From Escherichia phage vB_EcoP_ZX5, in sequence record MW722083.1: DNA of 39,565 nucleotides. The stretch is one strand, 5' to 3'. Of this stretch, positions 993 through 39,565 are shown piece after piece (the first letter of the stretch is position 1; each line of letters begins with the position of its first letter). Below the pieces are notes generated by a model that was not told the origin of the DNA, ran no database searches, and saw only the letters and a program-made list of their open reading frames with translations. Both the position numbers and the translations under genes were made by a program.

Positions 993-1077
993 TTTTAAAC
1001 ATGAGTATAATGCTTTTAACTGCAACGAGTGTAAACAATTATTGATAATTGTAGGCACATCCATGTGCCGCCGCTCG

Positions 1078-5687: not shown

Positions 5688-5967
5688 ATCAAAAACGGAG
5701 TTGGTGAAAAGTTATCTTTGAATTCTATCATGAATCAGTACGTATTTTAAATACATGTTCAGGTTTATTACACCATAGCATTATTAAATACAAAATTAAG
5801 TCTATGGTTCCTGTACAACTGCCCCCACTCTGCTGGCTCGTTCTGTAAAATCATTAGTACTTTTATTGAGATATATGATATGGAACAATAATGATTCATA
5901 TATGGTTTACTATGCGGGTTTAGTCATCAATAATTGACTGGCTTATAGATAGTAAACAGGAGAAAGT

Positions 5968-6372: not shown

Positions 6373-6667
6373 GTTTTTTTTGCTTATCACCAATGCAGTT
6401 ATTTGCACTGGCATAGCAATTCGCGTTGTCACATTCCGGCGTAACGGCTCTCAACATCGAAGGTGGGGAGGATGGCTTGCTTATTTCCTGATTGTTGCTG
6501 CGGCCAGTATTCCTGTTCGAGTCGCCTATGCAATCTGGTTACGTACGCCAATGGCTGTGGATTTATCTGAGGTCATTATCAACGCTGTCATGCTGGCTGC
6601 GGTTATTAAAACGCGCGGTAACGTCGTTCAAATTTTTAAAGTATCGAGGTCTAAACATGGAGATTAA
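6359..6667 (+). CDS. second holin/antiholin-like membrane protein (about 3 TM segments)
   Basis: 102-aa ORF with GGGGAGAAAA SD; overlaps upstream gene by 14 nt and endolysin by 11 nt. Confidence 0.5.
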
Positions 6668-7286
6668 ACAATTCCAGCGAGCTGCTGGTATCAGCGAGGC
6701 ACTGGCCGCACGCTGGTTCTCGCATATAACTTCTGCGATGAAAGAGTTTGGTATCAGCAAAGCAGAAGATCAGGCAATGTTTATTGCTCAAGTCGGGCAT
6801 GAGTCTGGGGGCTTCACCAGGTTGCAGGAGAATTTCAACTACAGTGTCAGCGGACTGGCTAACTTCGTTCGGGCTGGGCGTCTCACTCAGGGGCAGGCTA
6901 ATGCACTGGGGCGCCGTGCTGGTGAACCACCATTGCCACTTGAGCGCCAGCGCGCGATCGCAAATCTGGTATACAGCAAACGCATGGGGAACAATGCCCC
7001 TGGTGATGGCTGGAATTACCGAGGGCGCGGACTTATCCAGATTACCGGTTTGAATAACTATCGTGATTGCGGAAACGGTCTGAAGGTTGACCTGCTGGAG
7101 AGCCCTGAACTGCTGGCGCAGGACGGATATGCGGCTCGTAGCGCGGCGTGGTTCTTCGCCAGCAAAGGATGCATGAAGTATACCGGCGATATTGCACGTG
7201 TAACTCTGATTATCAATGGTGGCCGGAACGGCATCGACGACCGGCGAGCGCGGTACATCACTGCCAGTAAGGTGCTGGCGGTATGA
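6657..7286 (+). CDS. endolysin, glycoside hydrolase family 19 (chitinase-like) type
   Basis: 209 aa from ATG 6657 with GAGGT SD; motifs [12 protein letters not shown] and [12 protein letters not shown]; the track start 6492 is an unsupported 5' extension. Confidence 0.85.
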
Positions 7287-7765
7287 TCTGGGCATTCGTA
7301 AAAGCATACTGGAAACAGTTTCTTATCGTGGCAGTGCTTGCTGTTCTGGTCATATCAGGAGTGGTTGCCTGGAATATACACGGCAGTCGCCAGTACGATG
7401 CCGGGTATGCTCAGGCGGAAGAAGACCGCAAAGCCGAAGAAGACAAAGTTCGTCAGTACTACGAACAGGAGAAAGTGACCAATGAACGTGAAGCTCAGCA
7501 GAGGATCGACCAGGCGAGCAATGATGCTCTTGATGCTGCCGCTAGCGCTGGCCGGTTGCAGCAACAACTCTTTGCCATCCGTGAGCAGCTCAGGCAGTAT
7601 AACGCCATTGTCGGCGCTGGGTCGTCAGCCGCAGACACCGGAGTTTTGCTTGCCGACGTGCTCAGCAAATCTCTCGAGAGAAACAGACAACTGGCAGAGT
7701 ATGCTGACCGGGCAGCCGAAGCAGGAAGAGTCTGCGAAAAACAGTACGACACTTTGACCAGATAG
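7283..7765 (+). CDS. i-spanin (Rz-like), N-terminal TM plus coiled coil
   Basis: ATGA overlap with endolysin stop; N-terminal [20 protein letters not shown], charged periplasmic coiled coil. Confidence 0.75.
7521..7757 (+). CDS. o-spanin (Rz1-like lipoprotein) nested in the +1 frame of the i-spanin gene
   Basis: [13 protein letters not shown] lipobox, Pro-rich, wholly embedded in 7283..7765. Confidence 0.7.
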   Translation: MMLLMLPLALAGCSNNSLPSVSSSGSITPLSALGRQPQTPEFCLPTCSANLSRETDNWQSMLTGQPKQEESAKNSTTL

Positions 7766-11759: not shown

Positions 11760-12577
11760 ACGTACATATCCTGTTTACGTGCCCAGTCAGGGCGTTTAAT
11801 AATTTCCACTCCGCCCCACTCATCGTTGATGCGGCATTCGTGATAGGTATTCAGATCCCGGCGGAACAGAGCGTGCCCGGCATCGACATCCGGCGCATCC
11901 AGCTCGAACACGCGTACCGGATACCGACCACAATCAATGCTTTCGCTCACGGCAAGAAAGAAAAAACCATGCGGCTGACCAGTAACCCTCATTGCGCCTT
12001 CGCGGTACATTGCGTCCTGCACGTGGTAGCGGAATTCCTCGATGTGACGTGCAAAACGGTCCATATCTGCAACCTTTTTCACGTCGATGATCACGTTGTG
12101 CTCGTTCAGCCATTTGTCTGGACGAATTCGGCACAACTCACCCGTTTCTTCATCGTTCCAGTACATTGACGCTTCGCAGTAACCAGGTGCTTCCAACATC
12201 CAGCGTGCCGCCGGGTGAGCCATTGCGCTATCACGCATCAGCTCCAGTTTCCGCCACTGCTCGGCATCAAGTACCGTAATCCCCATATCCGCCACATCAC
12301 GAAGAAATGCCTCTTCGTCAGCTTTACCTTGTTTCGTCCGACGATCGAATTTCGGTGAAACAATGAAGCGTTTGTCGAACTCTCCAGGCTCCAGAAGCAG
12401 ACAGTGCAATGCGGTTCCCATATCCAGTGCAGACTTTTTCTCTTCGTCTTCTGGTGCTGCCTGAACCCATTTAAGAAGCGCCGGATTCTTGGCAACCATG
12501 TCCAGTTGCGACTTACTCACGCCGTCACCGGCGTGGTAGTCTTCGTTGCTGATGTCGAAATAAATTCCCGGTTTCAT
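11756..12577 (-). CDS. RecE-like 5'-3' exonuclease
   Basis: 273 aa; N-terminus GIYFDISNEDYHAGDGVSKSQL resembles the RecE nuclease domain; immediately upstream of the RecT-like gene. Confidence 0.6.
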   Translation of the reverse strand: MKPGIYFDISNEDYHAGDGVSKSQLDMVAKNPALLKWVQAAPEDEEKKSALDMGTALHCLLLEPGEFDKRFIVSPKFDRRTKQGKADEEAFLRDVADMGITVLDAEQWRKLELMRDSAMAHPAARWMLEAPGYCEASMYWNDEETGELCRIRPDKWLNEHNVIIDVKKVADMDRFARHIEEFRYHVQDAMYREGAMRVTGQPHGFFFLAVSESIDCGRYPVRVFELDAPDVDAGHALFRRDLNTYHECRINDEWGGVEIIKRPDWARKQDMYV

Positions 12578-12873
12578 GCCGCGTCCCTCTGTCCATCAAG
12601 CTGATCCGCCAGATCCCAGCGGGCGATAATTGCCATTGCCTCTCGCCGATAGGCATCCATCAGTTCTTCGAACTCAGGGCTGTCTTTAGCAGCCTCCAGT
12701 ACTTCCTGACGAACGCCTTTGCCTGTTACAACGTCGAAAGTTGAGGACAGTTGATGAAGTCGGATGCTCTCAATCAGTTCAACTTGTCGGTCATATAGCT
12801 GTTCTGACAGGCGGTAGTCCTTGTCGAATGCCAGCATGATTTTTTGAAGATTTTTCTGCTGATTAACGTTCAT
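12574..12873 (-). CDS. hypothetical early protein
   Basis: 99 aa from ATG 12873 with GGGAGGG SD; ATGA overlap with the RecE-like start. Confidence 0.5.
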   Translation of the reverse strand: MNVNQQKNLQKIMLAFDKDYRLSEQLYDRQVELIESIRLHQLSSTFDVVTGKGVRQEVLEAAKDSPEFEELMDAYRREAMAIIARWDLADQLDGQRDAA

Positions 12874-12878
12874 TATCA

Positions 12879-13028
12879 GCCCTCCCATATCTCGTTATCG
12901 TTGGCTACATCGCGAGCTTCTTTGCTGACGAAAGCCCACTTAATGCCTTCCTGTAAGGTGCGGAACTTCCAGCTCATGAATCCGCATGCAGTAACGCAGT
13001 ACCAACCGTTGATGATTTTCCACTGCAT
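12879..13028 (-). CDS. small Cys-containing hypothetical protein, first gene of the leftward early operon
   Basis: 49-aa ORF not in the track; ATG 13028 with GAGGT SD 8 nt upstream. Confidence 0.35.
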
Positions 13029-13047
13029 AACTTGCTACCTCGGTCTG

Positions 13048-13062
13048 TTACCGTTGAGGTAA
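13048..13062. promoter_or_regulatory. palindromic operator-like site TTACCGTTGAGGTAA (OL-like, proximal)
   Basis: perfect match 20 bp upstream of the first leftward early gene. Confidence 0.45.
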
Positions 13063-13109
13063 TAATTATGCGTATTTGGTTTGATGTCAATAGATATGAG
13101 TTAAAAAAA

Positions 13110-13124
13110 TTACCCATTAGGTAA
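13110..13124. promoter_or_regulatory. palindromic operator-like site TTACCCATTAGGTAA (OL-like, distal)
   Basis: perfect match between the repressor terminator and the leftward early operon. Confidence 0.45.
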
Positions 13125-13136
13125 TAGTATAGGCAA

Positions 13137-13160
13137 TAAAAAAGCCGCCAGAAGGCGGCT
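13137..13160 (-). terminator. intrinsic terminator downstream of the repressor gene
   Basis: 7-bp stem AGCCGCC/GGCGGCT, loop AGAA; A6 run on plus strand gives U-run on minus. Confidence 0.6.
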
Positions 13161-13181
13161 TACTTACTGAAAAGTATGATT

Positions 13182-13766
13182 TTATTGTTTGTTTTTTTCG
13201 TTCTGGTTGATGACAAATTCAATGTAACTTTCGATCTTTGCTTTCTCGGTTTCGGGTAACAATGCGTAGCGCGAGCGGTCATAGTTGATGGTCGCAGGGT
13301 CGTGCGGGTGAATCAGTAATTCATAGCCGTGACGCCCGAATGCGGATGCAACATTCTCCAGGGTGGAAATGGAAACGCTGACCTCATTGTTTAACAGGCG
13401 ACTGATTGTCACCTGGGCGACGCCGGATGCGCGGTGAAGTTTTCCCTGCGTTGAAAGGTCGCGGCTTTCGCTCATCCAGCGTTCCAGGTTGTGAGCCGCC
13501 AGCTGACCTATATCGCTCGGGCCGACAGGCTGAAAACCTTCCTGAGAAAGCGAGCGATCGATATCAAGCCAGTTACGTGGTTTATTGGCGGCAGCTTCAA
13601 TTTTTCGCGCAACCTGGTCGCCGATAACCTTCTTGCCAAGAGCCCAGCGGTTTACCAGATTTGCCTGAGTTCCAAGTTTTTCTGCCATCCGCGTCTGAAC
13701 ACCATTGAATTCACGGTCGATCAAGTCGTTGAGATTTTGCCTGCGGACGTCCTGGATACTTTTCAT
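13182..13766 (-). CDS. repressor with two helix-turn-helix motifs (tandem HTH)
   Basis: 194 aa; HTH-like QTRMAEKLGTQANLVNRWALGKK and SGVAQVTISRLLNNEVSVSISTLENVASAF; divergent from the cro-like gene across an operator-rich spacer. Confidence 0.65.
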   Translation of the reverse strand: MKSIQDVRRQNLNDLIDREFNGVQTRMAEKLGTQANLVNRWALGKKVIGDQVARKIEAAANKPRNWLDIDRSLSQEGFQPVGPSDIGQLAAHNLERWMSESRDLSTQGKLHRASGVAQVTISRLLNNEVSVSISTLENVASAFGRHGYELLIHPHDPATINYDRSRYALLPETEKAKIESYIEFVINQNEKNKQ

Positions 13767-13821
13767 TTTCTGGAAAATCGCCTCATATATGAATCAGTAG
13801 ATGATTCAATTTAAAGCAATA

Positions 13822-13884
13822 TTACCCAACAGGTAAATGCACCTCATAGGTAACTATCCTTGATTTTTGTTACCTTATGGGTGA
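13822..13884. promoter_or_regulatory. OR-like operator cluster of three sites between repressor and cro-like genes
   Basis: TTACCCAACAGGTAA 13822-13836; GCACCTCATAGGTAA 13839-13853; TTACCTTATGGGTGA 13870-13884. Confidence 0.5.
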
Positions 13885-13920
13885 ATATTTATTATCTGAA
13901 ATAAATATCAGGCAATAGCT

Positions 13921-14151
13921 ATGAGCGATAACGGACATTTCGATTTCAAAAAGCACTGGCTTGCACTTACTCCGGATGAGCGTGAAGCCTTCGCACAGGA
14001 AGCCGGAACGACGAGTCACTATATCCAGACTCACTTAACAGGTAAGCGCAAAATGCCAGGTAAAGTATTGATGAATGGGCTTTTTAAAGCCTGTAAAACA
14101 AGACAATGGCTGCGCTCAAAAGCAGAACTGGCATACTTCTTCTACTCATGA
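13921..14151 (+). CDS. Cro-like small DNA-binding protein
   Basis: 76-aa ORF divergent from the repressor; followed by a terminator. Confidence 0.55.
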   Translation: MSDNGHFDFKKHWLALTPDEREAFAQEAGTTSHYIQTHLTGKRKMPGKVLMNGLFKACKTRQWLRSKAELAYFFYS

Positions 14152-14173
14152 TATCCAGCTACAACCCTCTGTA

Positions 14174-14196
14174 GACCGCCATCCGGCGGTCTTTTC
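14174..14196 (+). terminator. intrinsic terminator after the cro-like gene (tR1-like)
   Basis: 7-bp stem GACCGCC/GGCGGTC, loop ATCC, then TTTT. Confidence 0.6.
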
Positions 14197-14206
14197 ATAT
14201 CTATTC

Positions 14207-14221
14207 GTACCTCAAAGGTAA
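14207..14221. promoter_or_regulatory. palindromic operator-like site GTACCTCAAAGGTAA
   Basis: one mismatch; between the cro terminator and the replication genes. Confidence 0.35.
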
Positions 14222-14299
14222 TAAAAAACCAAATCTGGTTGATCAAATTTTCCAATTGTGCAAAATAGCCAATATCAATAACAAAAAGGGGCGGAAAAA

Positions 14300-14512
14300 T
14301 TGAAGATAGTAACCAGAATGGAGGCCGCAAAAGCCGGGTTAAATCGCTATTTCACAGGAAAGCGGTGCCGTCACGGCCATCTCTCTGAAAGGTATGTTCT
14401 GAACGGAACATGTGTTGAATGTGCAATGAATAGCGCCAACCGCCATCGTAATGAATTTGCTTGTGCACTAAAGAGTGCAAGAGGGGAAACCTATGGCAAG
14501 CAGCTGGATTAA
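14300..14512 (+). CDS. small Cys/His-rich (zinc-ribbon-like) protein
   Basis: CRHGH...CVEC motif; start uncertain (TTG 14300 with AAGGGG SD, or ATG 14318). Confidence 0.4.
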   Translation: MKIVTRMEAAKAGLNRYFTGKRCRHGHLSERYVLNGTCVECAMNSANRHRNEFACALKSARGETYGKQLD

Positions 14513-15323
14513 GGTTGAAGTTATCACTCCTGATAAACCTGAAATTTTTCAGATAGCAGAAATTCTGGGTATTGATCCAGATGCTGTTCTTGGAAAGCTG
14601 GTTCGTATATGGGCATGGGCTGACCAGCAAACAATAGACGGTAACGCTGGCAGCGTTACAAAAGGAGTACTTGATAGACTCGCTTTTATTACAGGATTTG
14701 CTGACGCCCTCATTAGCGTCGGATGGCTTGCTTATCATGACGGCAAACTAATTCTTCCAAACTTTGAGCGACATAATGGAGAATCATCGAAAAAACGTGC
14801 ACTTACGAATAGAAGAGTGGCAGAGCATCGAAAACGAGTAACGCAAAAAGTAACGCCAACAGCGTTACAAAAGGAGTTACCAGAGGAAGAGGAAGAGGAA
14901 GATATATATAAAACCCCACACATAGCGCACGTGCGCGAGGGTGCTCCGACTAGTGAAGCGAACAGTACGCCGTTGCAGGTGGCAGAACCTGAATTTCTGG
15001 ATGGCCTGAGTGAACCCATCGGGAAATTTCCGATGACAGATGGCTGGCTACCGTCGCCAGATTTTCGGCGGCGTGCTGCGCTGTGGGGAACGGCCCTGCC
15101 GGAACCGGAATTTACACCTGCTGAACTTGCTGCATTCCGGGATTACTGGATGGCTGAGGGCAAAGTGTTCACGCAGGTTCAGTGGGAACAAAAATTCGCC
15201 AGGCACGTAAATCATATCAGGGGAAAATCAAAAAATGCCGGGAAAAGCGATGAGCTTGACTGGAATAACACTGACTGGATAGAAGGGGTGTGGGATGAAA
15301 TCAACTCCAGAACTTCTCAATGA
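14493..15323 (+). CDS. replication initiator (lambda O-like by position)
   Basis: 276 aa from ATG 14493 with GAGGGG SD; acidic linker (EEEEEE) overlying a repeat block; directly upstream of the P-like gene. Confidence 0.55.
   Translation: MASSWIKVEVITPDKPEIFQIAEILGIDPDAVLGKLVRIWAWADQQTIDGNAGSVTKGVLDRLAFITGFADALISVGWLAYHDGKLILPNFERHNGESSKKRALTNRRVAEHRKRVTQKVTPTALQKELPEEEEEEDIYKTPHIAHVREGAPTSEANSTPLQVAEPEFLDGLSEPIGKFPMTDGWLPSPDFRRRAALWGTALPEPEFTPAELAAFRDYWMAEGKVFTQVQWEQKFARHVNHIRGKSKNAGKSDELDWNNTDWIEGVWDEINSRTSQ
14838..14936. other. candidate origin of replication inside the O-like gene
   Basis: GTAACGC x2 at 14838 and 14850 plus inverted GCGTTAC 14862; (GAGGAA)3 14883-14900; AT-rich GATATATATAAAA 14901-14913; palindrome GCGCACGTGCGC 14925-14936. 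Confidence 0.35.
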
Positions 15324-27956: not shown

Positions 27957-28561
27957 TGGCCTCTGTAGTAGAGATCTGCAATCGTGCGCTGTCCAATATT
28001 GGCAACAGCCGCAGTATTAACAGCCTGACGGAAGCCAGCAAGGAAGCGGGGGAATGTTCGCTGCACTTTGAGGCCTGCCGTGATGCTGTGCTTTCTGATT
28101 TTGACTGGAACTTTGCTACCAAACGCGTGGCGCTTGCAGATACGAGCAATCCACCGCCTGACTGGGAATATGCGTATCAGTACCCGTCCGATTGTCTGCG
28201 CATTACTGAAATTATGCTTCCTGGTGTACGCAATCCAACAGCAGCAATGCGCGTTCAGTACGAAGTTGGTGCAGACACCAACGGAACAGGAAAGTTGATC
28301 TACACAGACCAGCCGCAGGCATGGCTCAAGTATGTCTCTCGCGTTTCAGATGTGAACATGTTTGATGCCATTTTTATGGAGGCGTTGGCCTGGCGTCTTG
28401 CGGCAGCTATTAACATGGCGCTGACTGGGAATGCAGACCTCGGTACGTTTGCCCTCAATATGTACAATCGCGTGATTCTTAGTGCTGGCTCGCATAGCCA
28501 GAATGAATCACAGGAACCACTGCCACCGGTTGACGAGTTTACCATTGCGAGGTTGTCCTGA
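27956..28561 (+). CDS. tail tubular protein A (T7 gp11-like)
   Basis: 201 aa; N-terminal pattern parallels T7 gp11 as recalled; precedes the gp12-like gene. Confidence 0.65.
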   Translation: MASVVEICNRALSNIGNSRSINSLTEASKEAGECSLHFEACRDAVLSDFDWNFATKRVALADTSNPPPDWEYAYQYPSDCLRITEIMLPGVRNPTAAMRVQYEVGADTNGTGKLIYTDQPQAWLKYVSRVSDVNMFDAIFMEALAWRLAAAINMALTGNADLGTFALNMYNRVILSAGSHSQNESQEPLPPVDEFTIARLS

Positions 28562-31032
28562 TGGCTATCAGTTGGATCCAGCCCAGCTTTGCAGGTGGTG
28601 AGATTGGACCGTCGTTGTACGGTCGTATTGACATGGCGAAGTACCAGGTGGCATTGCGCAAGTGCGATAACTTTATCGTGCGGCAGTATGGCGGAGTTGA
28701 GAATCGACCTGGTACGCGTTTTGTCGGTGCCGCCAAATACCCAAATCGGAAATGCCGCCTGATCCCGTTCCAGTTCTCGACGGTTCAGACTTATGCTCTG
28801 GAGTTCGGACACCAGTACATGCGCGTTATCAAAGATGGTGCGTTGGTGCTGAACAGCAGCAATGTTATTTATGAAATTTCCACGCCATATACTGAAACCG
28901 ATCTGTTCCGAATTAAATTCACGCAAAGCGCAGACGTGCTTACGCTGGTTCATCCGGCATACCCGCCGAAAGAGTTGCGCCGCTATGCGCATGACAACTG
29001 GCAACTGGTTGATGTGGTAACGAAGAACGGGCCATTTGAAGATATCAATATTGACGAGTCAGTGACGGTTTATGCCAGCGCCAGCACCGGGACAATTACG
29101 CTAACGGCAAGCGCCTCTATTTTTGGCGCGGAGCAGGTAGGCAAATTGTTCTATCTGGAACAGCCTGCAGTGGATTCTGTGCCGGTATGGGAAACCAGTA
29201 AGAGTACGTCGATTGGCGATATTCGCCGAGCAGACAGTAACTACTATCGCGCCGTTAAAGCAGGCAAAACAGGTACTTTGCGCCCTTCGCATACAGAAGG
29301 CACATCATGGGATGGCTGGGGCGGATCCGGTGATGATGATACTGGCATTGAGTGGGAATATCTGCACAGTGGTTTTGGCATTGCCCGTATCACTGCTGCA
29401 AATGGAACTACTGCAACTGCCGAGGTGATTTCCTATATCCCTTCGCAGGTAGTTGGCGAGGATAATGCCAGCTATAAATGGGCTAAATATGCCTGGAACA
29501 GTGTTAATGGTTATCCTGGCACTGTTGTTTATTATCAACAACGTCTTTACTTCGCCGCATCGACTGCGTTTCCTCAGACTATCTGGGCCAGCCGTACCGG
29601 GGATTATAAGGATTTTGGCAAAAGCAATCCTACGCAGGATGACGACAGAATTATCTACACCTATGCCGGGCGTCAGGTTAATGAGATCCGCCACCTGATT
29701 GATGTTGGTTCGCTGGTGGCGCTGACTTCCGGAGGTGAGTACGTCATCACTGGCGACCAGAACAAAGTGCTTACCCCATCATCATTTGCATTCAGCTCTC
29801 AGGGATCAAATGGCTCGAGCAATGTCCCACCAATTGCCGTGGCGAATATTGCTCTGTTCGTCCAGGAGAAAGGCAGTGTTGTCCGTGATCTGGCCTACTC
29901 ATTCGATGTTGACGGCTATCAGGGGAACGACCTGACCATCCTTGCCAATCATCTTTTTCAGAAGCACAGTATTGTTGACTGGTGCTTCTCTATTGTCCCT
30001 TACTCCAGCGCCTTCTGCATTCGTGATGACGGTAAATTACTGGTGATGACCTATTTGCGTGATCAGCAGGTTTTTGCATGGGCACCACAGTCCAGTACCG
30101 GAAAATATGAAAGCACATGCAGTATCAGCGAAGGAAATGAAGATGCGGTGTATTTCGTCGTTAACCGAACCGTTAACGGGCAAACAGTGAGATACATCGA
30201 GCGACTGTCCAGCCGTTTATTTACCAGCGATGAAGATGCTTTCTTTGTTGATTCTGGCCTTAGCTATGATGGAAGAAATACGTCTGACAGAACGATGACC
30301 ATCACTGGTGGTTCTGGTGAATGGGATTACCGCGCGGAATATACAATCAGTGTTTCTGGTGGTGCGTACTTCACCAGTAGTGATGTCGGCGCGCAACTAC
30401 AGTTCCCTTATACCGGAACTGATCCTGATACTGGTGATGAGGTGTCAAAAGAATTACGTTGCGACATTATTTCTGTAACCAGCAATACCGCTGTAGTGGT
30501 TCGTGCTAACAGGAACGTCCCGCCATCCCTCAGGAATGTGGCCACCACGAACTGGCAGATGGCGCGCCGGACATTTGGAGGCCTGTCTCATCTTGAAGGC
30601 CAGACCGTAAACATTCTCTCTGATGCGAACGTGGAACCACAGAAAGTGGTTTCCGGAGGTGCCGTCACGCTGGAATCTCCGGGGGCTGTAGTTCACATCG
30701 GCCTGCCAATAACTGCTGAATTCGAAACACTGGATATCAACATTAACGGACAGGAAACGCTGCTGGACAAAAAACAGGTGATCCCGTCCGTTACTCTGGT
30801 TGTGAATGCCAGCCGCGGCATCTGGGCGACTACGCCCGGCGGTAAATGGTACGAATATCCACAGCGTGAATTCGAGTTCTACGATGATCCTGTTGATGAT
30901 GCTACCGGAAAAGTAGAAGTGAAACTGGACAGTAACTGGGGCAAAAACGGACGTGTAAAAATCCGTCAGCTTGACCCGTTGCCGCTGTCTGTTCTTGCCG
31001 TTATTCCTCGCCTTACTGTTGGGGGATTCTGA
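28561..31032 (+). CDS. tail tubular protein B (T7 gp12-like)
   Basis: 823 aa; size, position and N-terminal pattern resemble T7 gp12 as recalled. Confidence 0.7.
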   Translation: MAISWIQPSFAGGEIGPSLYGRIDMAKYQVALRKCDNFIVRQYGGVENRPGTRFVGAAKYPNRKCRLIPFQFSTVQTYALEFGHQYMRVIKDGALVLNSSNVIYEISTPYTETDLFRIKFTQSADVLTLVHPAYPPKELRRYAHDNWQLVDVVTKNGPFEDINIDESVTVYASASTGTITLTASASIFGAEQVGKLFYLEQPAVDSVPVWETSKSTSIGDIRRADSNYYRAVKAGKTGTLRPSHTEGTSWDGWGGSGDDDTGIEWEYLHSGFGIARITAANGTTATAEVISYIPSQVVGEDNASYKWAKYAWNSVNGYPGTVVYYQQRLYFAASTAFPQTIWASRTGDYKDFGKSNPTQDDDRIIYTYAGRQVNEIRHLIDVGSLVALTSGGEYVITGDQNKVLTPSSFAFSSQGSNGSSNVPPIAVANIALFVQEKGSVVRDLAYSFDVDGYQGNDLTILANHLFQKHSIVDWCFSIVPYSSAFCIRDDGKLLVMTYLRDQQVFAWAPQSSTGKYESTCSISEGNEDAVYFVVNRTVNGQTVRYIERLSSRLFTSDEDAFFVDSGLSYDGRNTSDRTMTITGGSGEWDYRAEYTISVSGGAYFTSSDVGAQLQFPYTGTDPDTGDEVSKELRCDIISVTSNTAVVVRANRNVPPSLRNVATTNWQMARRTFGGLSHLEGQTVNILSDANVEPQKVVSGGAVTLESPGAVVHIGLPITAEFETLDININGQETLLDKKQVIPSVTLVVNASRGIWATTPGGKWYEYPQREFEFYDDPVDDATGKVEVKLDSNWGKNGRVKIRQLDPLPLSVLAVIPRLTVGGF

Positions 31033-31496
31033 TGATCGATGTTCGAATTATTCCCGCTACCGAAGAGCATCTTCAGATGATTTTGCCGGATGTTCGTCAG
31101 GCTGATATTGACGAACTGTATGCGGTATCGCTGATGACTACCGAAGATGCGCTGCGTGTTGGTCTGCGCACTGCGACTATGGCCTGGTCAGGGTTCGCGA
31201 ACGGAGAGCTGGTAACCATGTTTGGTGTATCTCCGGCGTCAATGATCGGTGGCAATGGTACGCCATGGCTGGTCGGGACCAGCCGTATTGAAAAATATCA
31301 GAAGACATTTCTGCGCCACTGCCGCCCTGTATTGCAGCAGATGCTGGCAGTTTATCCGCGCCTGGAAAACTATGTCGACGAGCGAAACCATGTTGCCAAA
31401 GCATGGCTGCACTGGCTTGGATTCAGGCTTGAAGAAGCCGCGCCTTATGGTGCTCTTGGTCTTAATTTCCACAGATTTCACATGGAGAGAAAATAA
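31032..31496 (+). CDS. hypothetical virion protein (internal virion protein A position)
   Basis: 154-aa ORF coupled by ATGA to the upstream gene. Confidence 0.45.
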   Translation: MIDVRIIPATEEHLQMILPDVRQADIDELYAVSLMTTEDALRVGLRTATMAWSGFANGELVTMFGVSPASMIGGNGTPWLVGTSRIEKYQKTFLRHCRPVLQQMLAVYPRLENYVDERNHVAKAWLHWLGFRLEEAAPYGALGLNFHRFHMERK

Positions 31497-32041
31497 TGTG
31501 CGATCCGGTTATTGCTGGTGGCGCAATGCTCGCCATGAGTGGCATTCAGGCATACACCCAGTACCAACAGGGAAAGTATGCCTCGAAGGTTGCAGAAGCG
31601 AACGCAGATATAGCCACAGCTCAGGCAAATGATGCAATAAACAGAGGTAACGCTGAAGCTGAGCAACGGCGCAGAGAGACCCGACAGCGGCTTGGTACAC
31701 AGGCGGCGACAATGGGGGCTACCGGCGCTGATTTATCTACAGGTAACGCGCTGGATATATTTGGCGACACTGCCCAGTTTGGCGCTCTTGATTCTCTGAC
31801 GACGGTGAATAACGCGCAACGCGAGGCTTACGGTTATCAGGTTCAGGCTGCCAACTATAAAGCAGAAGCCAGTTCAGCCCGTAAACAGGGGAATGTGGGA
31901 GCAGCAACAACATTGCTCACTGCGCCTCTGAAGGCATACGGTGCGTACCAGATGTTTGGTGGGACGTGGAGTCCGTTTACTCAAAGCACCCCTGCGCCAA
32001 TCGGGGCAGCAGCAGGAACCAGATTACCCGGAGGATTATAA
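31496..32041 (+). CDS. internal virion protein B-like (T7 gp14-like)
   Basis: 181 aa; begins MC, Ala/Gln-rich, similar size to T7 gp14. Confidence 0.55.
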   Translation: MCDPVIAGGAMLAMSGIQAYTQYQQGKYASKVAEANADIATAQANDAINRGNAEAEQRRRETRQRLGTQAATMGATGADLSTGNALDIFGDTAQFGALDSLTTVNNAQREAYGYQVQAANYKAEASSARKQGNVGAATTLLTAPLKAYGAYQMFGGTWSPFTQSTPAPIGAAAGTRLPGGL

Positions 32042-34554
32042 TGCCAGTCGTACCAACAGTATCCGGCCGTCAGGTTCAGAGCCGTGGAGTTCAGTCAGCA
32101 GGCTTGCAGACGTTTTCTCAGCCAGGTATTGGTGATGCTTTTGTTCGGGCAGGGACAGAGGCAATTGATGTTTTTGGTCAGGCAAAACAGCGTGCCAATA
32201 TCGCTCTGGCTCAGGAGGCATCTCTTAACCTCAGTCAGATAAGCAGTGATCTGCTGAATAATCCTGAAACAGGATTGCTTAACCTGAAAGGGAAAAATGC
32301 TATTGGAAAAGGTCAGGAGTATACGCAGCAGTTTGATGCTCAGGTCGAACAACTGGCTATGTCGCTGCCGGATGAACAGGCTCGTAATGCTTTCATGCAG
32401 CAGGCGCAGCAGCAGCGCATTCAGTTCACTACGCAGGCCGGGCGGCACGAGATAGGGCAAATAAATGCCTACGAAGAAGGCCAGTTTCAGGCTACGCTGC
32501 TGAACAATGGTAAAAATGCCGCAGCATTGTATGGCGACAACGCCGCATACGTATTGGCTAATAAGCAAACTTTCCAGCAAATTGAGGATTACGGCATTGC
32601 ACATGGCTGGAGTGACGAGCAAATCCAGGCCAAGAAAATCGAGTTTAAAGAGAAGGTTGCTGATGCTGCATTGTCCCAGTGGTCGGCAAACAATGCGACC
32701 GCATTCATCCAAAGTAATGGCGAGTTAAGTGATACTGCTGCTGGAGCTCGCCGTGCTGTAGCAGATAGTGACTCTTCCGAGCGTGCCCGTGGCATACGCA
32801 ACAATAACCCAGGAAATCTCGAATACAGCAAAACTAATCCGTGGGTAGGCCAGACCGGTGATGATGGTCGATTTGCTAAATTCGAAACACCTGAACACGG
32901 GATTCGTGCATTAGGGCGGAACCTGATGTCGTATCAGAGGCAGGGTATTGATACCGTCAGCGAGATAATTAATCGCTGGGCACCGCCTACTGATAAAAAT
33001 GACACTATGTCGTATATCAAAGCAGTGTGCGAACAACTTGGCGTTTCTGCTGATGAGCCTCTCGATGCATCTAATCCTGATACCCTGAAGGCGCTTTGTG
33101 CAGCCATTATCCATCATGAGAACGGTAGCCAGCCATACAGTGATCAGCAGTTAACTGCTGGTGTCAGTGCAGCACTTGGTTTATCAACAATTCCAACCAA
33201 CACCAAACGCTATACCGGTAATGCAGCATTCGATGCGGCATCTCCTGAGGCGCAGGCAAGTTTTATGCGACAGGCGGATCAACTGCGTCGGCAGCAGCAG
33301 GCTGAATATAAAACGATGATTGACAGCCAGGTTCGCGATGCGACAGCTGCGTATATGCGTGGCGTTGAATTTCCTAACCCACCTGGTGAGGCTGATTTTA
33401 TTGCAGCTTATGGAGTAAGAGAAGGAAACCTGCGATATACCGAGTTCAGAAATACGCAAATCGCCGGACAGTATATAGGCTCTTTCCGCAACATGCCGAC
33501 AAGCAGCATTACAGCATATGTTGAGCAATTACGCCCGGATACTGGTGAGACAGGGGAGGGTTATGCGGCACGAGCCGCTCTTTATGACAACGTTGTGTCG
33601 GCTGCAAGTCAGGTGATAAAGCAGCGACAGGCTGATCCTGTACAGTTCTCTCTTGCCGCCGGACAGGCAAAGCCTATCGACATGAGCAATAAGGATAACT
33701 TTGGACAGAGCGTTGCCTTGCGTGCTGCTCAGGTCAGTGACCTTGCTAAGTCATATGGCACTCCACTGACGTTCTTTTCCAAAGACGAGGCCAATCAGAT
33801 CGGTGTTTTCTTTCGTGATGCGCCCGTTTCCCAACAGGCAGCATATCTCGATACCATCAGGCAGAGCACTGGTGGTGGGCAGGTGTATATGTCAGCACTA
33901 CAGCAGATCAGTGCCAACGCTCCATCTGCTGCCGTTGCCGGGATACTGATGGATAAGCCAGGTGGTATTTTGGCAGAAAAAAACTGGTTTAATCCGGATG
34001 TTTCCGTGTCTCCAGAAACCGCTGCGCAGACAATTCTTGCTGGCGCGGCGGCTCGTAAAGGTACTGATGACGCGAAAGGTATTCCGATGCCTAAAGATGC
34101 TGATCTTCGCCTTGAGTTTTCTGACATGGTGAAGAATGCATTTGCTGGTGATGCTCAGGGGGCATCAATGGCATACGAGATCGCAAAGGACTATTACGCT
34201 GGTGTGATGGCGAAAAAAGGCGTGGTATCAGGCGAAATTGACAATGATATCTGGAAACAGGCTGTTAACGTAGCTACAGGTGGCGTGCATGACTATAACG
34301 GAATGGGGAATGTTCTTTTGCCGTGGGGAATGTCTGCAGAGCAATTCGATAAGCAGGTTAATCAGGCTTGGAATGAACAAGTTGTTGGCACAGGGATAAA
34401 AACACCGCCTGGTCAGTATGGTTTGCAAAGTTACGGCGATAGTCAGTACCTGGTGAAACTTGGTACTGGTTATCTGCTAAAAGATGATGGTTCTCCCGTT
34501 GTTCTTGATCTGACACAGAAGCGTCAGAGATTCTCCGGAGATATTCCGCAATGA
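32041..34554 (+). CDS. internal virion / ejection protein with a possible enzymatic domain
   Basis: 837 aa from ATG 32041 (TAATG overlap); RGIRNNNPGNLEY motif near nt 32790. Confidence 0.6.
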   Translation: MPVVPTVSGRQVQSRGVQSAGLQTFSQPGIGDAFVRAGTEAIDVFGQAKQRANIALAQEASLNLSQISSDLLNNPETGLLNLKGKNAIGKGQEYTQQFDAQVEQLAMSLPDEQARNAFMQQAQQQRIQFTTQAGRHEIGQINAYEEGQFQATLLNNGKNAAALYGDNAAYVLANKQTFQQIEDYGIAHGWSDEQIQAKKIEFKEKVADAALSQWSANNATAFIQSNGELSDTAAGARRAVADSDSSERARGIRNNNPGNLEYSKTNPWVGQTGDDGRFAKFETPEHGIRALGRNLMSYQRQGIDTVSEIINRWAPPTDKNDTMSYIKAVCEQLGVSADEPLDASNPDTLKALCAAIIHHENGSQPYSDQQLTAGVSAALGLSTIPTNTKRYTGNAAFDAASPEAQASFMRQADQLRRQQQAEYKTMIDSQVRDATAAYMRGVEFPNPPGEADFIAAYGVREGNLRYTEFRNTQIAGQYIGSFRNMPTSSITAYVEQLRPDTGETGEGYAARAALYDNVVSAASQVIKQRQADPVQFSLAAGQAKPIDMSNKDNFGQSVALRAAQVSDLAKSYGTPLTFFSKDEANQIGVFFRDAPVSQQAAYLDTIRQSTGGGQVYMSALQQISANAPSAAVAGILMDKPGGILAEKNWFNPDVSVSPETAAQTILAGAAARKGTDDAKGIPMPKDADLRLEFSDMVKNAFAGDAQGASMAYEIAKDYYAGVMAKKGVVSGEIDNDIWKQAVNVATGGVHDYNGMGNVLLPWGMSAEQFDKQVNQAWNEQVVGTGIKTPPGQYGLQSYGDSQYLVKLGTGYLLKDDGSPVVLDLTQKRQRFSGDIPQ

Positions 34555-36353
34555 GTTACTTTGGCCTTAATCCAGTAAACCAGAATCAGCAGCTTGACGA
34601 AGCAGCATCAAATCCAGTTGGCTTTAACAGCGATGTTGGTTTTTTCGACAATGCTGTAGGAGCGGCATTGTCTGGTTTGTACTCCGGGCTGGTGGCAAAG
34701 CCAGATCAGTTGCTATGGGCAGGGATGGATAAAATCGTATCCCCGATTGCTCAGCTTGTTAACGAAAACACCTCGCTCAATGACACTTCAGTTTCATACA
34801 TTGCTGAGCAGAGAAAACTAGCAGAGCAGCAGGTTAAGCGGCTGACGCCTGATGCCGCGACAACCGGAACCGCCGGGCAGGTCCTTTATGGGTTGTTCGA
34901 TATGGGCGGGCAGGCTGTTGTCGGTACAACGCTCGGTGGTCCGGTCGGAGGTGCTGCGGCGGTAACTTCTCTACAGGGTTTTTCTGAGTTTGAACGGTTG
35001 ACAGCACAGGGTGTTGATTTCAGGACGGCGCAGGAAGCGGGATTAGTGCAGGGTATTACTGCTGGTGCCGGAACACTGATCCCTATGAGCCTCGGGTTAC
35101 GTGCTGGTGGTGCGCTGGCGGAAGGTGTGGCGGCTCAGCTTGCGCGGACGGGTGAAAGTTCAGTGCGACGCGCCGCAGCAACAGCAATACGTGCAACGCC
35201 AGATATTGCCTATGCCGCAGGTACAAATATTGCGTTCGGTATGGCACAGCGTGGGCTTACTGCAAAAACGCTTCGTGATGGTGGCTATAGCGAAATGGCT
35301 AACCAGTATGATGTGTTGGATCGACAGGCAATTGCTATTGATGCTGTTCTTGGGGTGGCGTTTGGTGGTGTCGGCAGATTTATTAACTCTCGCGGCGAGT
35401 CTACAAGCGCACCAAATTTTTCACCAGTTGATATTGATGCTGCACTGGCGGCGAATGCCGCTCATCATGCTGAAATTGATATTGCTCCCGGCGTTCCGAT
35501 CAACGTGCTTTCGCGTAATTCGCACATTCAGGCTCTGCGAAAAGCCATGTCTGATGTTAGCCAGGGGAGACCTGTAGACGTTGCCAGCATTGTTGAGTCT
35601 GCATCTTTCAGTGAAATTCCTGGGCGCAAGAGTCTGCTGTCTCAGGCAGTTAATGAGGCTCTGTCATCTGTAGATGATGGAGTAACGGCGCGCGCTATAG
35701 AAAATCGGTTGCTTGAAGAACAGGCCGCGCAGCTTTTGTCGCGTGGCGATAGAAAGGTTTACCAGTCTGAAATCGCTAATAGCCAACGAATTATTGAAAA
35801 TCTCACTGAACAGCGCGCACAAATTCTTGCAGAAGAGCCAACCGGTAGCGGTAAGGCTTTATCTCGTGCTCGATCAGATAAACAGGCCAGACTTCGCGAT
35901 ATTGACCAACGAATCCGGCAGGCACAAGAACGCCTGGAATTTTCTCGTAACGCGTTGGCGCCGCACGAGCCTGGAGGTCAGTTTTTTGAAGCTCGAGCAG
36001 AACTGGCACGACGACAGCAGGCAGAAAGTGAACTTAATGCTCAGGCTGTTTCATTCTATAAAACAGCAGAGGTCAGGACGCCAGAAGAAGTAGCTCCTTT
36101 TGAGCCCGGTAAGATATTGCAACAGACAGAACAAAAAATGATGGCAGATCCGGCAGGAGATATTGATCTGCGCATAGCTGAAGACTCGCTGCTTGAATCA
36201 CCTGACATGATAATCACCGTGCTGGATGATGATGGTAATCCACAATCGCGCAGTGCGCGTGAAGCACTGGATGAAGCGAACAGGGAAAGTGAGCAGGCAA
36301 TACAGGATTCCAGCCTGTTTGATGTCGCTGTGGCGTGTTTCTTGAGAGGTTAA
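34551..36353 (+). CDS. internal virion / ejection protein
   Basis: 600-aa Ala/Gly-rich ORF coupled by ATGA. Confidence 0.6.
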   Translation: MSYFGLNPVNQNQQLDEAASNPVGFNSDVGFFDNAVGAALSGLYSGLVAKPDQLLWAGMDKIVSPIAQLVNENTSLNDTSVSYIAEQRKLAEQQVKRLTPDAATTGTAGQVLYGLFDMGGQAVVGTTLGGPVGGAAAVTSLQGFSEFERLTAQGVDFRTAQEAGLVQGITAGAGTLIPMSLGLRAGGALAEGVAAQLARTGESSVRRAAATAIRATPDIAYAAGTNIAFGMAQRGLTAKTLRDGGYSEMANQYDVLDRQAIAIDAVLGVAFGGVGRFINSRGESTSAPNFSPVDIDAALAANAAHHAEIDIAPGVPINVLSRNSHIQALRKAMSDVSQGRPVDVASIVESASFSEIPGRKSLLSQAVNEALSSVDDGVTARAIENRLLEEQAAQLLSRGDRKVYQSEIANSQRIIENLTEQRAQILAEEPTGSGKALSRARSDKQARLRDIDQRIRQAQERLEFSRNALAPHEPGGQFFEARAELARRQQAESELNAQAVSFYKTAEVRTPEEVAPFEPGKILQQTEQKMMADPAGDIDLRIAEDSLLESPDMIITVLDDDGNPQSRSAREALDEANRESEQAIQDSSLFDVAVACFLRG

Positions 36354-36358
36354 ATTAA

Positions 36359-38833
36359 ATGAGACAGGAATGTATACAAGCGGTTCAGCAGGCGGCGCAG
36401 CGCATGTTAACGGCGCGAGAAATACAGAACATTGAAGACCGCATTTATCGAAATATGCGCTCCATTGCTCGTGATGACCCTATGTCGTGGCGACAACTTT
36501 CCGAATCAGAGCGGCTATATCGAGCAGCACAATTGGCATCTGAAGAATTACAGCGAGAAGCGGCATTAAAGAAACGTCGTGTGGCCCTCACTATAGCCGC
36601 ACGTCAGAGATTGGATAAATTTATCAATAGCTATCAAGGGGCTGATGGGAAACTTGGCGCTCTTAACCGTACTATTGCTTTTAATGCAGACGGTAAATCG
36701 AATTTCCTCTCTGTTGAATCCAGAACAAAAGCCACTCGTGATTATGCATTGAGTCAATTGCAGGAGGCATTTGAAGCAGTTGATCCTCGCTTTTTTGGCC
36801 TGTTTGAAGATGAAGCTGGCGTGCGTGACCTGGTATATGAAATGCGAGGGCAAAATACTGGCAATGCTAAAGCAAGAAAAGGTGCTAAGGCGTGGAGAGA
36901 AGTGACAGAGCTACTGCGCCGCCGGTTTAATGATGCTGGTGGGGACATTGGCTATCTCGAAAACTGGGGGCTCCCTCAACATCATTCTATGGAAAAGGTT
37001 GGGGCGGTATCAAAGGATAAGTGGGTTAGCGATGTTATAGGTAAGCTGGATCGCAAATATTATACCCGAGTCGATGGACAACTGATGAACGATGCCGAGT
37101 TGTCTGCATTTCTTGGAGAGGCTTATAACACGATCGCTACTGGTGGGCTGAATAAGCTTACTGATACCGGAATGCGAATTTCCGGCGCACGTGCTAACCG
37201 GGGTAATGCATCACGACAGATACATTTCAAAGATGCAGATTCCTATCTGCAATATCAGCAACTTTATGGCGATCGCTCTCTATGGGAAATCATGGTCGGT
37301 CACCTGGAAGGTATCAGTAAAGATATTGCACTGGTGGAAACATATGGCCCAAACCCCGATCATGTTTTCCGCTCTCTTCTTGATCAGGTGAAGGCAGAAA
37401 CGGCAACAGCTAACCCGAGTAAAACCGGTAAAGTCGAGCGGCTGGCGAACAACACAGAGAATCTGTACAACTTTATTTCCGGAAAGACACAGCCTGTAGC
37501 GAATCCGCACATCGCGCGATGGTCTGACAATATCCGCAACTGGCTGGTTGCCAGCAGACTCGGATCCGCGTTGCTGTCATCGTTCTCTGATCTTGGAACC
37601 ATGTATCTGTCTGCGAAGGTTACCAACCTTCCAATGAACCAGTTATTCCGCAACCAGCTTGAAGCTATGGACCCAACGAACCGTACAGAACTTGCGCGGG
37701 CGCGCCGCGCTGGTCTGGCGATGGAATCTCTACTTGGCAGCGTTAACCGCTGGGCGATGGATAATATGGGGCCGTCTGTGTCTCGTTGGGCTGCAACGGC
37801 GGTAATGCGTGCCAGTGGGCTTACAGCATGGTCAGATGCGCACAAGCGCGCCTATGGCGTAACCATGATGGGAAGCCTGGGAGAAGTAGTGTCACGGACA
37901 CCAGACCTTCGTAGCCTCGATGATTCTGATTTTCGTATCCTGAAAAGCAAAGGGATTACTGACACAGACTGGAGCGTATGGAAGCTGGCGCAACAGGAGG
38001 ACTGGGGGAACGGTAATAATACGATGCTGACACCGGAAAGCATTATGCGTATCCCTGATTCAGCAGTTAAACATCTTGGTGAGCCTGAACGCGTGAAATT
38101 TGAGGCAATGCGTAAACTGCTCGGTGCCGTAACTGAAGAAGTTGATATGGCTGTTATTACACCGGGTGCACGTGAGCAACTGATAACCGGTTCTGGTATT
38201 CAGCGTGGAACATGGAAAGGTGAATTAACGAGAAGTGTTTTCCTGTTTAAATCGTTCCCTATCTCGGTGGTTATGCGTCACTGGTCACGCGCTATGGGTA
38301 TGCCGTCGGCTGGTGGGCGTGCGGCATATATTGCGACGTTTATTGCCAGTACGACCATTCTTGGCGCTTTGTCGCAGCAACTTAACGACCTTGCGTCTGG
38401 TCGTAATCCTCGCGAGATGACAGGAGAAGATGCTGCTAAATTTTGGCTTGGTGCTCTACTGAAAGGTGGTGGTCTTGGCCTTTACGGTGACTTTTTATTG
38501 TCAGATCACACTAGGTACGGAAGCGGCGCGCTGGCGTCGATGCTTGGCCCGGTAGCTGGTCTGGTTGATGACGTAGTGAAGATTGCTCAGGGCATACCGT
38601 TAAATGCTGTGGAAGGGAAGAATGAGCAGACTGGTGGTGATCTGGTTAAGCTGGGGAAAGGTCTGATGCCAGGTGCGAATCTCTGGTACTTAAAGGCGGC
38701 TCTCGATCACATGATCTTTAACCAGATGCAGGAGTATTTTTCACCAGGCTATTTGCGTAAAATGGAGCAACGTTCGAAGAAAGAGTTTAACCAGACATAC
38801 TGGTGGCGACCACAGGATGTCACTCCGCAATAA
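36359..38833 (+). CDS. large internal virion / ejection protein
   Basis: 824-aa ORF, last large gene of the late operon. Confidence 0.6.
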   Translation: MRQECIQAVQQAAQRMLTAREIQNIEDRIYRNMRSIARDDPMSWRQLSESERLYRAAQLASEELQREAALKKRRVALTIAARQRLDKFINSYQGADGKLGALNRTIAFNADGKSNFLSVESRTKATRDYALSQLQEAFEAVDPRFFGLFEDEAGVRDLVYEMRGQNTGNAKARKGAKAWREVTELLRRRFNDAGGDIGYLENWGLPQHHSMEKVGAVSKDKWVSDVIGKLDRKYYTRVDGQLMNDAELSAFLGEAYNTIATGGLNKLTDTGMRISGARANRGNASRQIHFKDADSYLQYQQLYGDRSLWEIMVGHLEGISKDIALVETYGPNPDHVFRSLLDQVKAETATANPSKTGKVERLANNTENLYNFISGKTQPVANPHIARWSDNIRNWLVASRLGSALLSSFSDLGTMYLSAKVTNLPMNQLFRNQLEAMDPTNRTELARARRAGLAMESLLGSVNRWAMDNMGPSVSRWAATAVMRASGLTAWSDAHKRAYGVTMMGSLGEVVSRTPDLRSLDDSDFRILKSKGITDTDWSVWKLAQQEDWGNGNNTMLTPESIMRIPDSAVKHLGEPERVKFEAMRKLLGAVTEEVDMAVITPGAREQLITGSGIQRGTWKGELTRSVFLFKSFPISVVMRHWSRAMGMPSAGGRAAYIATFIASTTILGALSQQLNDLASGRNPREMTGEDAAKFWLGALLKGGGLGLYGDFLLSDHTRYGSGALASMLGPVAGLVDDVVKIAQGIPLNAVEGKNEQTGGDLVKLGKGLMPGANLWYLKAALDHMIFNQMQEYFSPGYLRKMEQRSKKEFNQTYWWRPQDVTPQ

Positions 38834-38844: not shown

Positions 38845-38967
38845 ATGGTTCAAATAACTTTTATTGTACTAATATGTGCAGCGTTTTTATGCTATTCATA
38901 CATTTTGATAAAAATGGGTTTCAATTGGAATCTCTGTTGCGTGCAGCGGCATGGTTCGGCTTTGTAG
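38845..38967 (+). CDS. small hydrophobic peptide (AT-rich moron)
   Basis: 40 aa not in the track; AAGGAG 38834-38839, ATG 38845 after 5-nt spacer; alternative overlapping 62-aa frame 38817..39005. Confidence 0.3.
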   Translation: MVQITFIVLICAAFLCYSYILIKMGFNWNLCCVQRHGSAL

Positions 38968-39052
38968 TATTCGGAATTGTATTGTTCGGAAGAATAATAA
39001 AATAACTAGTTAATTTGTGGATTGGTGCTGTTTTTCCATGATAGGGGTAATT

Positions 39053-39433
39053 ATGAGAAAAGTATTTTTGATTTTTGGATTTATGCTTCTCGTTGGATGC
39101 CAGTCAGCTGCACAGTTTGAAAGAAATATGCTTACGTGGCGCGGGCAGAGTATAGACGCAATGGTTCAGCAGTGGGGGTATCCTCAGGGAGAGCTTACAT
39201 CTCCAGATGGAAACAGAGTGTATGTTTACTCAAGCTCTGGTAGTTATAACGTACCACAAACCACAACGTATAATACTACGTCTAATCTAATTGGTAATAC
39301 TATATATTCAAACACATACGCAACAACTGATGGCGGTTATACACTCCATTTCAGTTGCTCTGTTTACGTTGAGTTTGGTGCTGATAAGATTATTAAAAAT
39401 GTTACATGGCGCGGTAATAATTGCGTTGCGTGA
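39053..39433 (+). CDS. lipoprotein, candidate superinfection-exclusion or surface-modifying moron
   Basis: MRKVFLIFGFMLLVGC signal peptide with lipobox; AT-rich relative to neighbours; followed by a terminator. Confidence 0.65.
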   Translation: MRKVFLIFGFMLLVGCQSAAQFERNMLTWRGQSIDAMVQQWGYPQGELTSPDGNRVYVYSSSGSYNVPQTTTYNTTSNLIGNTIYSNTYATTDGGYTLHFSCSVYVEFGADKIIKNVTWRGNNCVA

Positions 39434-39441
39434 CATGTCAC
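39430..39441. repeat. 12-bp perfect palindrome GTGACATGTCAC (copy 3) overlapping the lipoprotein stop codon
   Basis: exact match; abuts the terminator hairpin. Confidence 0.9.
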
Positions 39442-39467
39442 AGGCCGCTTTCGCGGCCTTGTTTTTA
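39442..39467 (+). terminator. intrinsic terminator after the lipoprotein gene
   Basis: 7-bp stem AGGCCGC/GCGGCCT with loop TTTC, then TGTTTTTA. Confidence 0.7.
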
Positions 39468-39565
39468 ACGAATGCCACCGCCACCCGGGCGGGAATCCGC
39501 AGAACGCCCACCGCAGCGGGAGCCGTCAGCGGCAGTATCGCTGTCGTGCTGACAACGACCGGCAA
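39465..39565 (-). CDS. possible 3' part of the junction-spanning secreted-peptide ORF (valid only if window end joins window start)
   Basis: frame continuous with 1..61 across the ends; stop TAA at 39467..39465 next to the convergent terminator. Confidence 0.25.
   Translation of the reverse strand, partial: AGRCQHDSDTAADGSRCGGRSADSRPGGGGIR

Follow-up and report, generated by a model that had tools for sequence, protein, structure and literature searches.

A predicted Enc34-type peptidoglycan glycosidase domain in an internal virion protein of a phiV10-like Escherichia phage

Residues 249-378 (nt 32785..33174, + strand) of the 837-aa internal virion (ejection) protein encoded at nt 32041..34554 (+) in Escherichia phage vB_EcoP_ZX5 form a peptidoglycan glycosidase domain of the Enc34/PHA02564 type, an assignment on which sequence, predicted fold and proposed catalytic residues agree, with the enzymatic activity itself being a prediction. 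Very probably, this domain travels within an ejected internal virion protein and opens the murein at entry, with the GlcNAc-beta-1,4-MurNAc bond as its likely target. The finding is already known in kind and substance, because the epsilon15 orthologue carries the label 'putative lytic transglycosylase' and the internal virion proteins of other podoviruses carry an 'endolysin domain'; to this our analysis contributes an exact family assignment, the residues proposed as catalytic and the likely chemistry. All coordinates refer to the window, by which we mean the whole 39,565-nt stretch of DNA analysed (sequence record MW722083.1).

By whole-window BLAST, the window is a phiV10-like Uetakevirus genome in circularly permuted form; its differences from phiV10 lie in the tailspike region and across the window ends, where there is a lipoprotein-like ORF. 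The reading frame at 32041..34554 is open over 837 codons, with a Shine-Dalgarno GGAGG 7 nt 5' of its start, and it shares a TAATG stop/start overlap with the gp14-like gene before it, through which the two genes are translationally coupled. BLAST aligned the gene with phiV10 12543..15056 at 99.1% DNA identity, a value shared by O157 typing phages 9 and 10, and with Salmonella epsilon15-group phages at ~75%. At the protein level, epsilon15 gp15 is 60% identical overall; conservation is high across the N-terminal two thirds, where the domain lies, and the C-terminal third has diverged. Epsilon15 gp15 (AAO06078) and phiV10 p18 (phiV10p18, YP_512272) are thus direct orthologues that differ only in annotation, the former being named 'putative lytic transglycosylase' and the latter 'head protein' or 'hypothetical structural protein'; neither annotation names the Enc34 family, and that of phiV10 mentions similarity to structural protein P5 of phage PM2. 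PHROG 992 matches the 837-aa protein over its whole length, and no strongly hydrophobic segment was found in it. We found no published experimental work with the 837-aa protein or with any of its orthologues in Uetakevirus.

A preliminary description of the sequence had placed a compact globular domain at nt 32780-33140 of an otherwise Ala/Gln-rich protein, and both composition and structure bear this out: alanine plus glutamine account for 8-12% of residues 251-350 and mostly for 16-38% elsewhere, the final ~40 residues being likewise poor in them (11%), while residues 252-378 are modelled at pLDDT 94-98. The extent it gave falls within 8 nt of nt 32788..33138 (residues 250-366), where RGIRNNNPGNLEY begins at residue 250 and IIHHENGSQPY occupies residues 356-366, although its first position, 32780, is out of frame and translating those coordinates as given runs into stops. 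The structure prediction that it had suggested for the flagged segment (~250-370) gave a confident globular fold: modelled alone by AlphaFold2 from a 57-sequence alignment, the segment reached a mean pLDDT of 92.5 and a pTM of 0.85. Low-confidence linkers flank the domain, one N-terminal to it at residues 227-251 (nt 32719..32793, +; pLDDT <50) and the other at about residues 379-400 (AlphaFold2). In the full-length AlphaFold2 model, which gave the values of 94-98 for the domain, long helices make up residues 30-225 and 400-530, and prediction is poor over the C-terminal third. The pTM of that model is 0.36 because the homologue search, whose hits were all 96-100% identical to the query where they aligned, gave the non-lysin parts no depth, and only local features, domain boundaries and secondary structure were taken from it. 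Outside the lysin domain the protein has no Pfam or PDB match, and its non-lysin parts showed no homology to T7 gp15 or gp16, to which the similarity is positional and functional only.

A phmmer search of the PDB with the 837-aa protein returned two matching chains: 9vvp_L, 'Gp29' (1295 aa; its residues 3-146; E 3.5e-38), and 7q47_A (E 2.6e-17, residues 249-367), which is the catalytic domain from the endolysin of Hafnia phage Enc34, the protein in which this type of domain was first solved. By tblastn, 9VVP Gp29 maps to the Kayfunavirus gp16-equivalent; the PhiXacm4-11 adaptor 'gp29' and cyanophage A4 gp29, which we also considered for its identity, are different proteins. The PHROG families that match the domain are labelled endolysin, head protein, tape measure and 'tail injection transglycosylase'. 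No Pfam family was found at E<=1 for either the whole protein or the domain, and NCBIfam gave no match, so that the profile search proposed earlier for the flagged domain succeeded in PHROG and the PDB but in neither Pfam nor NCBIfam. Membership by profile in SLT/GH23, GH73, GH19, GH24 and similar families was rejected, the Pfam and NCBIfam scans yielding nothing meaningful; for GH73, the domain showed neither the Pfam Glucosaminidase profile nor an alpha+beta lysozyme-like fold with a beta-lobe. The predicted fold is that of Enc34: it is helical, is similar to the alpha-lobe of lysozyme, and has the catalytic helix placed after alpha4. In Enc34-type domains the core helices are permuted in order relative to GH23/GH73 enzymes.

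The significant sequence similarity to Enc34 ORF39 (PDB 7Q47; NCBI CDD PHA02564) also allows the putative active site to be located. Residue equivalences were counted along the phmmer alignment to 7q47_A, whose chain numbering is offset by one. Glu360 (codon GAG, nt 33118..33120, +) is the predicted catalytic acid, equivalent to Enc34 Glu131 by alignment and the numbering of PMC8943055; Tyr325 (nt 33013..33015, +), equivalent to Tyr95, would position the substrate, and Trp313 (nt 32977..32979, +) corresponds to Trp79. In Enc34 itself, Glu131 is the proposed catalytic residue, a role inferred by superposition, not mutagenesis, and Trp79 and Tyr95 are put forward as conserved residues that matter for catalysis (PMC8943055). 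Epsilon15 gp15, whose domain is nearly identical to that of the window protein, retains the proposed catalytic residues. The earlier guess of a peptidoglycan-active module is therefore supported by the Enc34-family sequence match, the predicted fold and the kept putative catalytic residues.

Muralytic activity on Gram-negative peptidoglycan has been shown for two members of this family, Enc34 ORF39deltaC (PMC8943055) and M4LysdeltaTMD (PMC7143992). The Enc34 domain lyses E. coli, P. aeruginosa and Hafnia cells whose outer membrane has been permeabilised (PMC8943055). M4Lys of Salmonella phage BSPM4, which has the same PHA02564 domain, degrades purified peptidoglycan, and its HPLC-MS products indicate an N-acetylglucosaminidase with possible extra endopeptidase activity (PMC7143992). 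Although M4Lys differs from the window protein in being a holin-independent endolysin with a C-terminal transmembrane domain, it is the best guide to the bond specificity of the domain described here. Specificity is unsettled within the family, M4Lys hinting at an endopeptidase and the epsilon15 record at a lytic transglycosylase. The window lysin may possibly be bifunctional, combining glycosidase and endopeptidase activities, as hinted for M4Lys. The same domain could also serve the same entry role by lytic transglycosylation, as T7 gp16 does, leaving a 1,6-anhydro-MurNAc product. This chemistry, which we regard as unlikely, would agree with the single catalytic carboxylate, with the distant structural kinship to GH23 gp144 and MltC noted by the Enc34 authors, with the epsilon15 GenBank label for gp15, obtained via an HHpred match to SltB 4anr, and with the many Kayfunavirus records that name the domain 'peptidoglycan (lytic exo)transglycosylase'; however, the family's only product data, together with the nearest recognisable fold relatives, point to a glucosaminidase.

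The family is widespread. A profile of the domain, searched against 1.84 billion representative proteins (clusters at 50% identity), matched 18,767 clusters at E<=1e-3 and 13,524 at E<=1e-10, and tblastn located the domain in 814 of 50,697 phage records; because of these last two counts, its presence is far beyond chance. Among the new sequences with the 150 best matches, 89 are 161-260 aa long, and 62 of these 89 end in a hydrophobic C-terminal segment resembling the Enc34 and M4Lys endolysins; another 28 exceed 500 aa and embed the domain as the 837-aa protein does, and one bears four tandem copies. Carriers include chi/Enc34-like siphoviruses, in which the label is endolysin, Mu-like Pseudomonas phages, in which it is structural protein, a tectivirus (Gluconobacter phage GC1) and non-tailed NO16-like vibriophages, whose Enc34-like GP11 has been found in the virion (PMC13552765). 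T7-like Kayfunavirus phages carry it at ~55% identity at the N-terminus of an 'internal virion protein D / internal virion protein with endolysin domain'.

The Kayfunavirus protein, represented by 9VVP Gp29, has the same domain on a podovirus ejection protein and presumably the same entry role. There, the domain takes the place where T7 gp16 bears its SLT transglycosylase, since 9VVP Gp29 maps to the Kayfunavirus internal virion protein. It forms the very N-terminal end of the ~1295-aa gp16-equivalent, which is both the last core protein and the largest, whereas in the window it is internal (residues 249-378) and belongs to the first large protein after the gp14-like one; outside the domain, the two proteins have no detectable similarity. 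Podoviruses eject internal proteins that form a trans-envelope channel, and the muralytic domain of T7 gp16 is needed in highly cross-linked murein (PMC8954989). The N-terminal domain of T7 gp16 thus has an analogous role, as a muralytic module on an ejected core protein, but it belongs to another family (SLT/GH23, catalytic E37), and the window protein has no Pfam SLT match. A precedent for a lysin on the gp15-position protein instead of gp16 is offered by K1E/K1-5 gp35, lysozyme-bearing gp15-like ejection proteins, the likeness being one of gene position.

Gene order is that of a podovirus ejection set, a co-oriented block in which the lysin-bearing gene directly follows a gp14-family gene downstream of the adaptor and nozzle. 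The block begins with the 823-aa tail nozzle protein (nt 28561..31032, +), which matches PDB 8ck1_A 'Tail Nozzle' over residues 2-822 (E 1.2e-217) and PHROG 376 'tail protein'. It continues with a gp13-like internal virion protein of 154 aa (nt 31032..31496, +; PHROG 308 'internal virion protein', E 1.8e-62; Pfam Phage_T7_Gp13 weakly, at E 0.088, below cutoff) and a gp14-like internal virion protein of 181 aa (nt 31496..32041, +; PF24072 T7_gp14, E 2.5e-7, above the curated cutoff; also PHROG 418 'internal virion protein'). Downstream of the lysin-bearing gene, and overlapping it by ATGA, lies the gene for a second large internal virion protein of 600 aa (nt 34551..36353, +; PHROG 1145), the equivalent of epsilon15 gp16 and phiV10p19, with one hydrophobic segment at residues 260-278. 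A third large internal virion protein of 824 aa (nt 36359..38833, +), the equivalent of epsilon15 gp17 and phiV10p20, matches PHROG 684 'virion structural protein', in line with the phiV10 annotation. Stop and start codons overlap at most junctions from the nozzle to the 824-aa gene, and the block as a whole corresponds to epsilon15 gp12-gp17. For the 600-aa, 824-aa and gp14-like neighbours, no solved relatives were found by sequence in the PDB. According to a 2022 review, the ejection proteins of epsilon15 are gp11 (229 aa), gp12 (499 aa) and gp13 (708 aa). The epsilon15 GenBank record disagrees, giving these three proteins 201, 825 and 154 aa, respectively, and having gp15-gp17 as the large internal proteins.

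This arrangement bears on where the protein resides. A location inside the virion is suggested by annotation ('structural/head protein'), by synteny and by a second-hand citation for epsilon15 gp15. Older models of epsilon15 gp15 would make the 837-aa protein an external part of the tail tube or hub, with the lysin at the tail tip; in a 2025 paper citing Guichard 2013, gp15 and gp17/16 are put in the 'tail packaging/injection device' of epsilon15, tail-tip lysins are common in other phages, and the domain also occurs in tape-measure-like proteins (PHROG 2276). We nevertheless hold an external location to be improbable: the tail hub genes lie upstream, with epsilon15 gp11 annotated as a match to T7 tail tubular protein A and a solved nozzle as the match of the 823-aa protein; the lysin-bearing gene itself comes after the gp13- and gp14-family internal virion genes; and, judged by the domain, the nearest protein of solved structure is a T7 gp16-equivalent.

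Conservation of the domain speaks to whether it is active. Every sequence in alignments of 57 and 61 homologues (about 35-55% identity overall) has E360 and Y325, and at least 90% of them keep W313 and the N-terminal RNNNPGN motif. The phiV10-type and epsilon15 proteins, moreover, agree visibly better in the domain than in their C-terminal third. Such conservation of catalytic residues and domain is the pattern expected from an active enzyme, and makes it very doubtful that the domain is a catalytically dead remnant, kept as a purely structural or peptidoglycan-binding module.

The timing of its action, in turn, is indicated by a separate canonical lysis cassette at nt 5968..7765 (+), recognised by Pfam Phage_holin_8, Phage_holin_3_7, Glyco_hydro_19 and DUF2514. 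It comprises two holin-like genes (nt 5968..6372 and 6359..6667, +), a GH19 endolysin (nt 6657..7286, +) and Rz/Rz1 spanins (nt 7283..7765 and 7482..7757, +), in agreement with the phiV10 annotation at this place (holin, endolysin, Rz-like spanins). With its own GH19 endolysin, this cassette rules out the domain as the phage's endolysin. Nor is the whole protein an Enc34-type endolysin, as it has neither a transmembrane domain nor a lysis-cassette location; unlike in Enc34 ORF39, the domain is internal in an 837-aa virion protein of a phage that has a separate GH19 endolysin. That the domain works late, as an endolysin or auxiliary lysis enzyme, is hardly credible even though the family founders Enc34 ORF39 and M4Lys are endolysins and PHROG labels related families 'endolysin', given the full lysis cassette, the 837-aa length and position of the gene in the nozzle/internal-virion-protein operon, and the lack of any strongly hydrophobic segment such as most of the short representatives have at the C-terminus. 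Because of the separate holin/GH19 endolysin/spanin cassette, the domain is most likely an entry lysin and not a lysis enzyme.

By analogy with T7 and its relatives, we propose the following course of events for such an entry lysin. The domain would be tethered through flexible linkers within a long helical internal virion protein, which would be packaged in the capsid together with the gp14-like, 600-aa and 824-aa proteins. Once the tailspikes have bound the O-antigen, the packaged proteins would be ejected via the portal and nozzle. In the periplasm, the domain would then cleave murein glycan strands locally, most likely at the GlcNAc-beta-1,4-MurNAc bond, the favoured candidate in view of the N-acetylglucosaminidase behaviour of M4Lys, a member of the family. 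Through the hole thus made in the murein, the ejected proteins may build a trans-envelope channel for the DNA.

The N-terminal linker shows variation of its own among sister phages. Most E. coli prophage orthologues are 935 aa long, being otherwise about 96-99% identical to the 837-aa protein, and the only difference is an insertion of ~100 aa between residues 242 and 249. SPN1S-type Uetakeviruses have the ~100-aa module too, as do internal-virion or DNA-transfer proteins of unrelated podophages; searches of Pfam and the PDB gave no match to it, and its weak PHROG match is to a family of unknown function. As a tentative suggestion, the linker (~227-251) may be a modular 'cargo slot' of Uetakevirus ejection proteins. 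If true, ejection proteins would be exchangeable carriers that bring variable small effector or enzyme modules to the periplasm beside the lysin.

The importance of the finding is mainly one of annotation, and it raises no new biological question: a muralytic family of more than 13,000 clusters and 814 genomes is without a Pfam or NCBIfam model, and as a consequence the gene is called 'head protein', 'capsid and scaffold' or 'hypothetical' in most phiV10-like records. The domain is also one more candidate enzybiotic. For phage biology, one and the same module occupies differing positions in ejection proteins, internal here and N-terminal on the Kayfunavirus gp16-equivalent, and the Enc34-type assignment, as read from sequence, would pinpoint the probable peptidoglycan-breaching component of the epsilon15/phiV10 injection machinery.

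Most Escherichia coli prophage orthologues of the 837-aa internal virion protein (ORF 32041..34554, + strand) are 935 aa long, and share ~96-99% identity with it across the common parts. Their additional length is a module of ~100 aa (GNINLFNRPSV...TGKHLGIFD...) seated within the low-confidence linker, directly ahead of the predicted lysin domain, and spanning residues 243-346 of P0123, a protein recovered in the homologue searches. The module is absent from the window, where its insertion point falls between residues 242 and 249 (32767..32784). It also occurs in SPN1S-type Uetakeviruses, as well as in proteins annotated as ‘IVP-C-like’ or ‘DNA transfer’ in phages of Klebsiella, Citrobacter, Proteus, Aeromonas and Rhizobium; searches of Pfam and the PDB returned no match to it.

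The adjoining Enc34-type domain (32785..33174) belongs to a family of 13,524 clusters (E<=1e-10), with 814 phage genomes containing the domain. Pfam-A and NCBIfam hold no model for this family, and labels on orthologues consequently differ, ranging from ‘head protein’, ‘capsid and scaffold’ and ‘structural protein P5’ to ‘endolysin’ and ‘peptidoglycan transglycosylase’. The domain profile search also found P0241, a metagenomic protein of 762 aa in which four copies of the domain lie in tandem; [HQ]E[NST]G motifs of the catalytic type begin at residues 156, 353, 534 and 702, and such a multi-lysin architecture is unusual.

Upstream of the ejection protein gene, an 823-aa protein (28561..31032, + strand) matches the solved ‘Tail Nozzle’ chain PDB 8ck1_A over its full length (E 1.2e-217). 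For the ejection proteins of epsilon15, a published review and the GenBank record disagree. In Table 1 of the review (PMC8954989), the homologues of gp14/15/16 are given as gp11, gp12 and gp13, with lengths of 229, 499 and 708 aa, whereas in AY150271.2 (6141-19663) gp11 is an adaptor-like protein of 201 aa, gp12 an 825-aa nozzle and gp13 a gp13-like protein of 154 aa, the large internal proteins being gp15-gp17. The sizes given in the review resemble what a P22-like phage would show, and the wrong genome may therefore underlie its conclusions on ‘small’ epsilon15 ejection proteins.

Two segments set the window phage apart from phiV10. The sequences at 38846..39565 and 1..1067, both missing in phiV10, would form one continuous stretch if the genome is circular, flanked by the last internal-virion gene on one side and the Bro-N gene on the other. 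This stretch carries a lipoprotein-like ORF (39017..39433) with the lipobox LLVGC and two minus-strand ORFs (155..703 and 630..971), and may represent moron or superinfection-exclusion cargo. The second segment, ~2665..5981, displays no DNA similarity to phiV10, whose counterpart region holds tail fibre and O-acetyltransferase genes; in the window, a 1039-aa tailspike ORF (2542..5661, + strand) lies here. This divergence of the tailspike segment implies that the receptor (O-antigen) specificity of the window phage would differ from that of phiV10.
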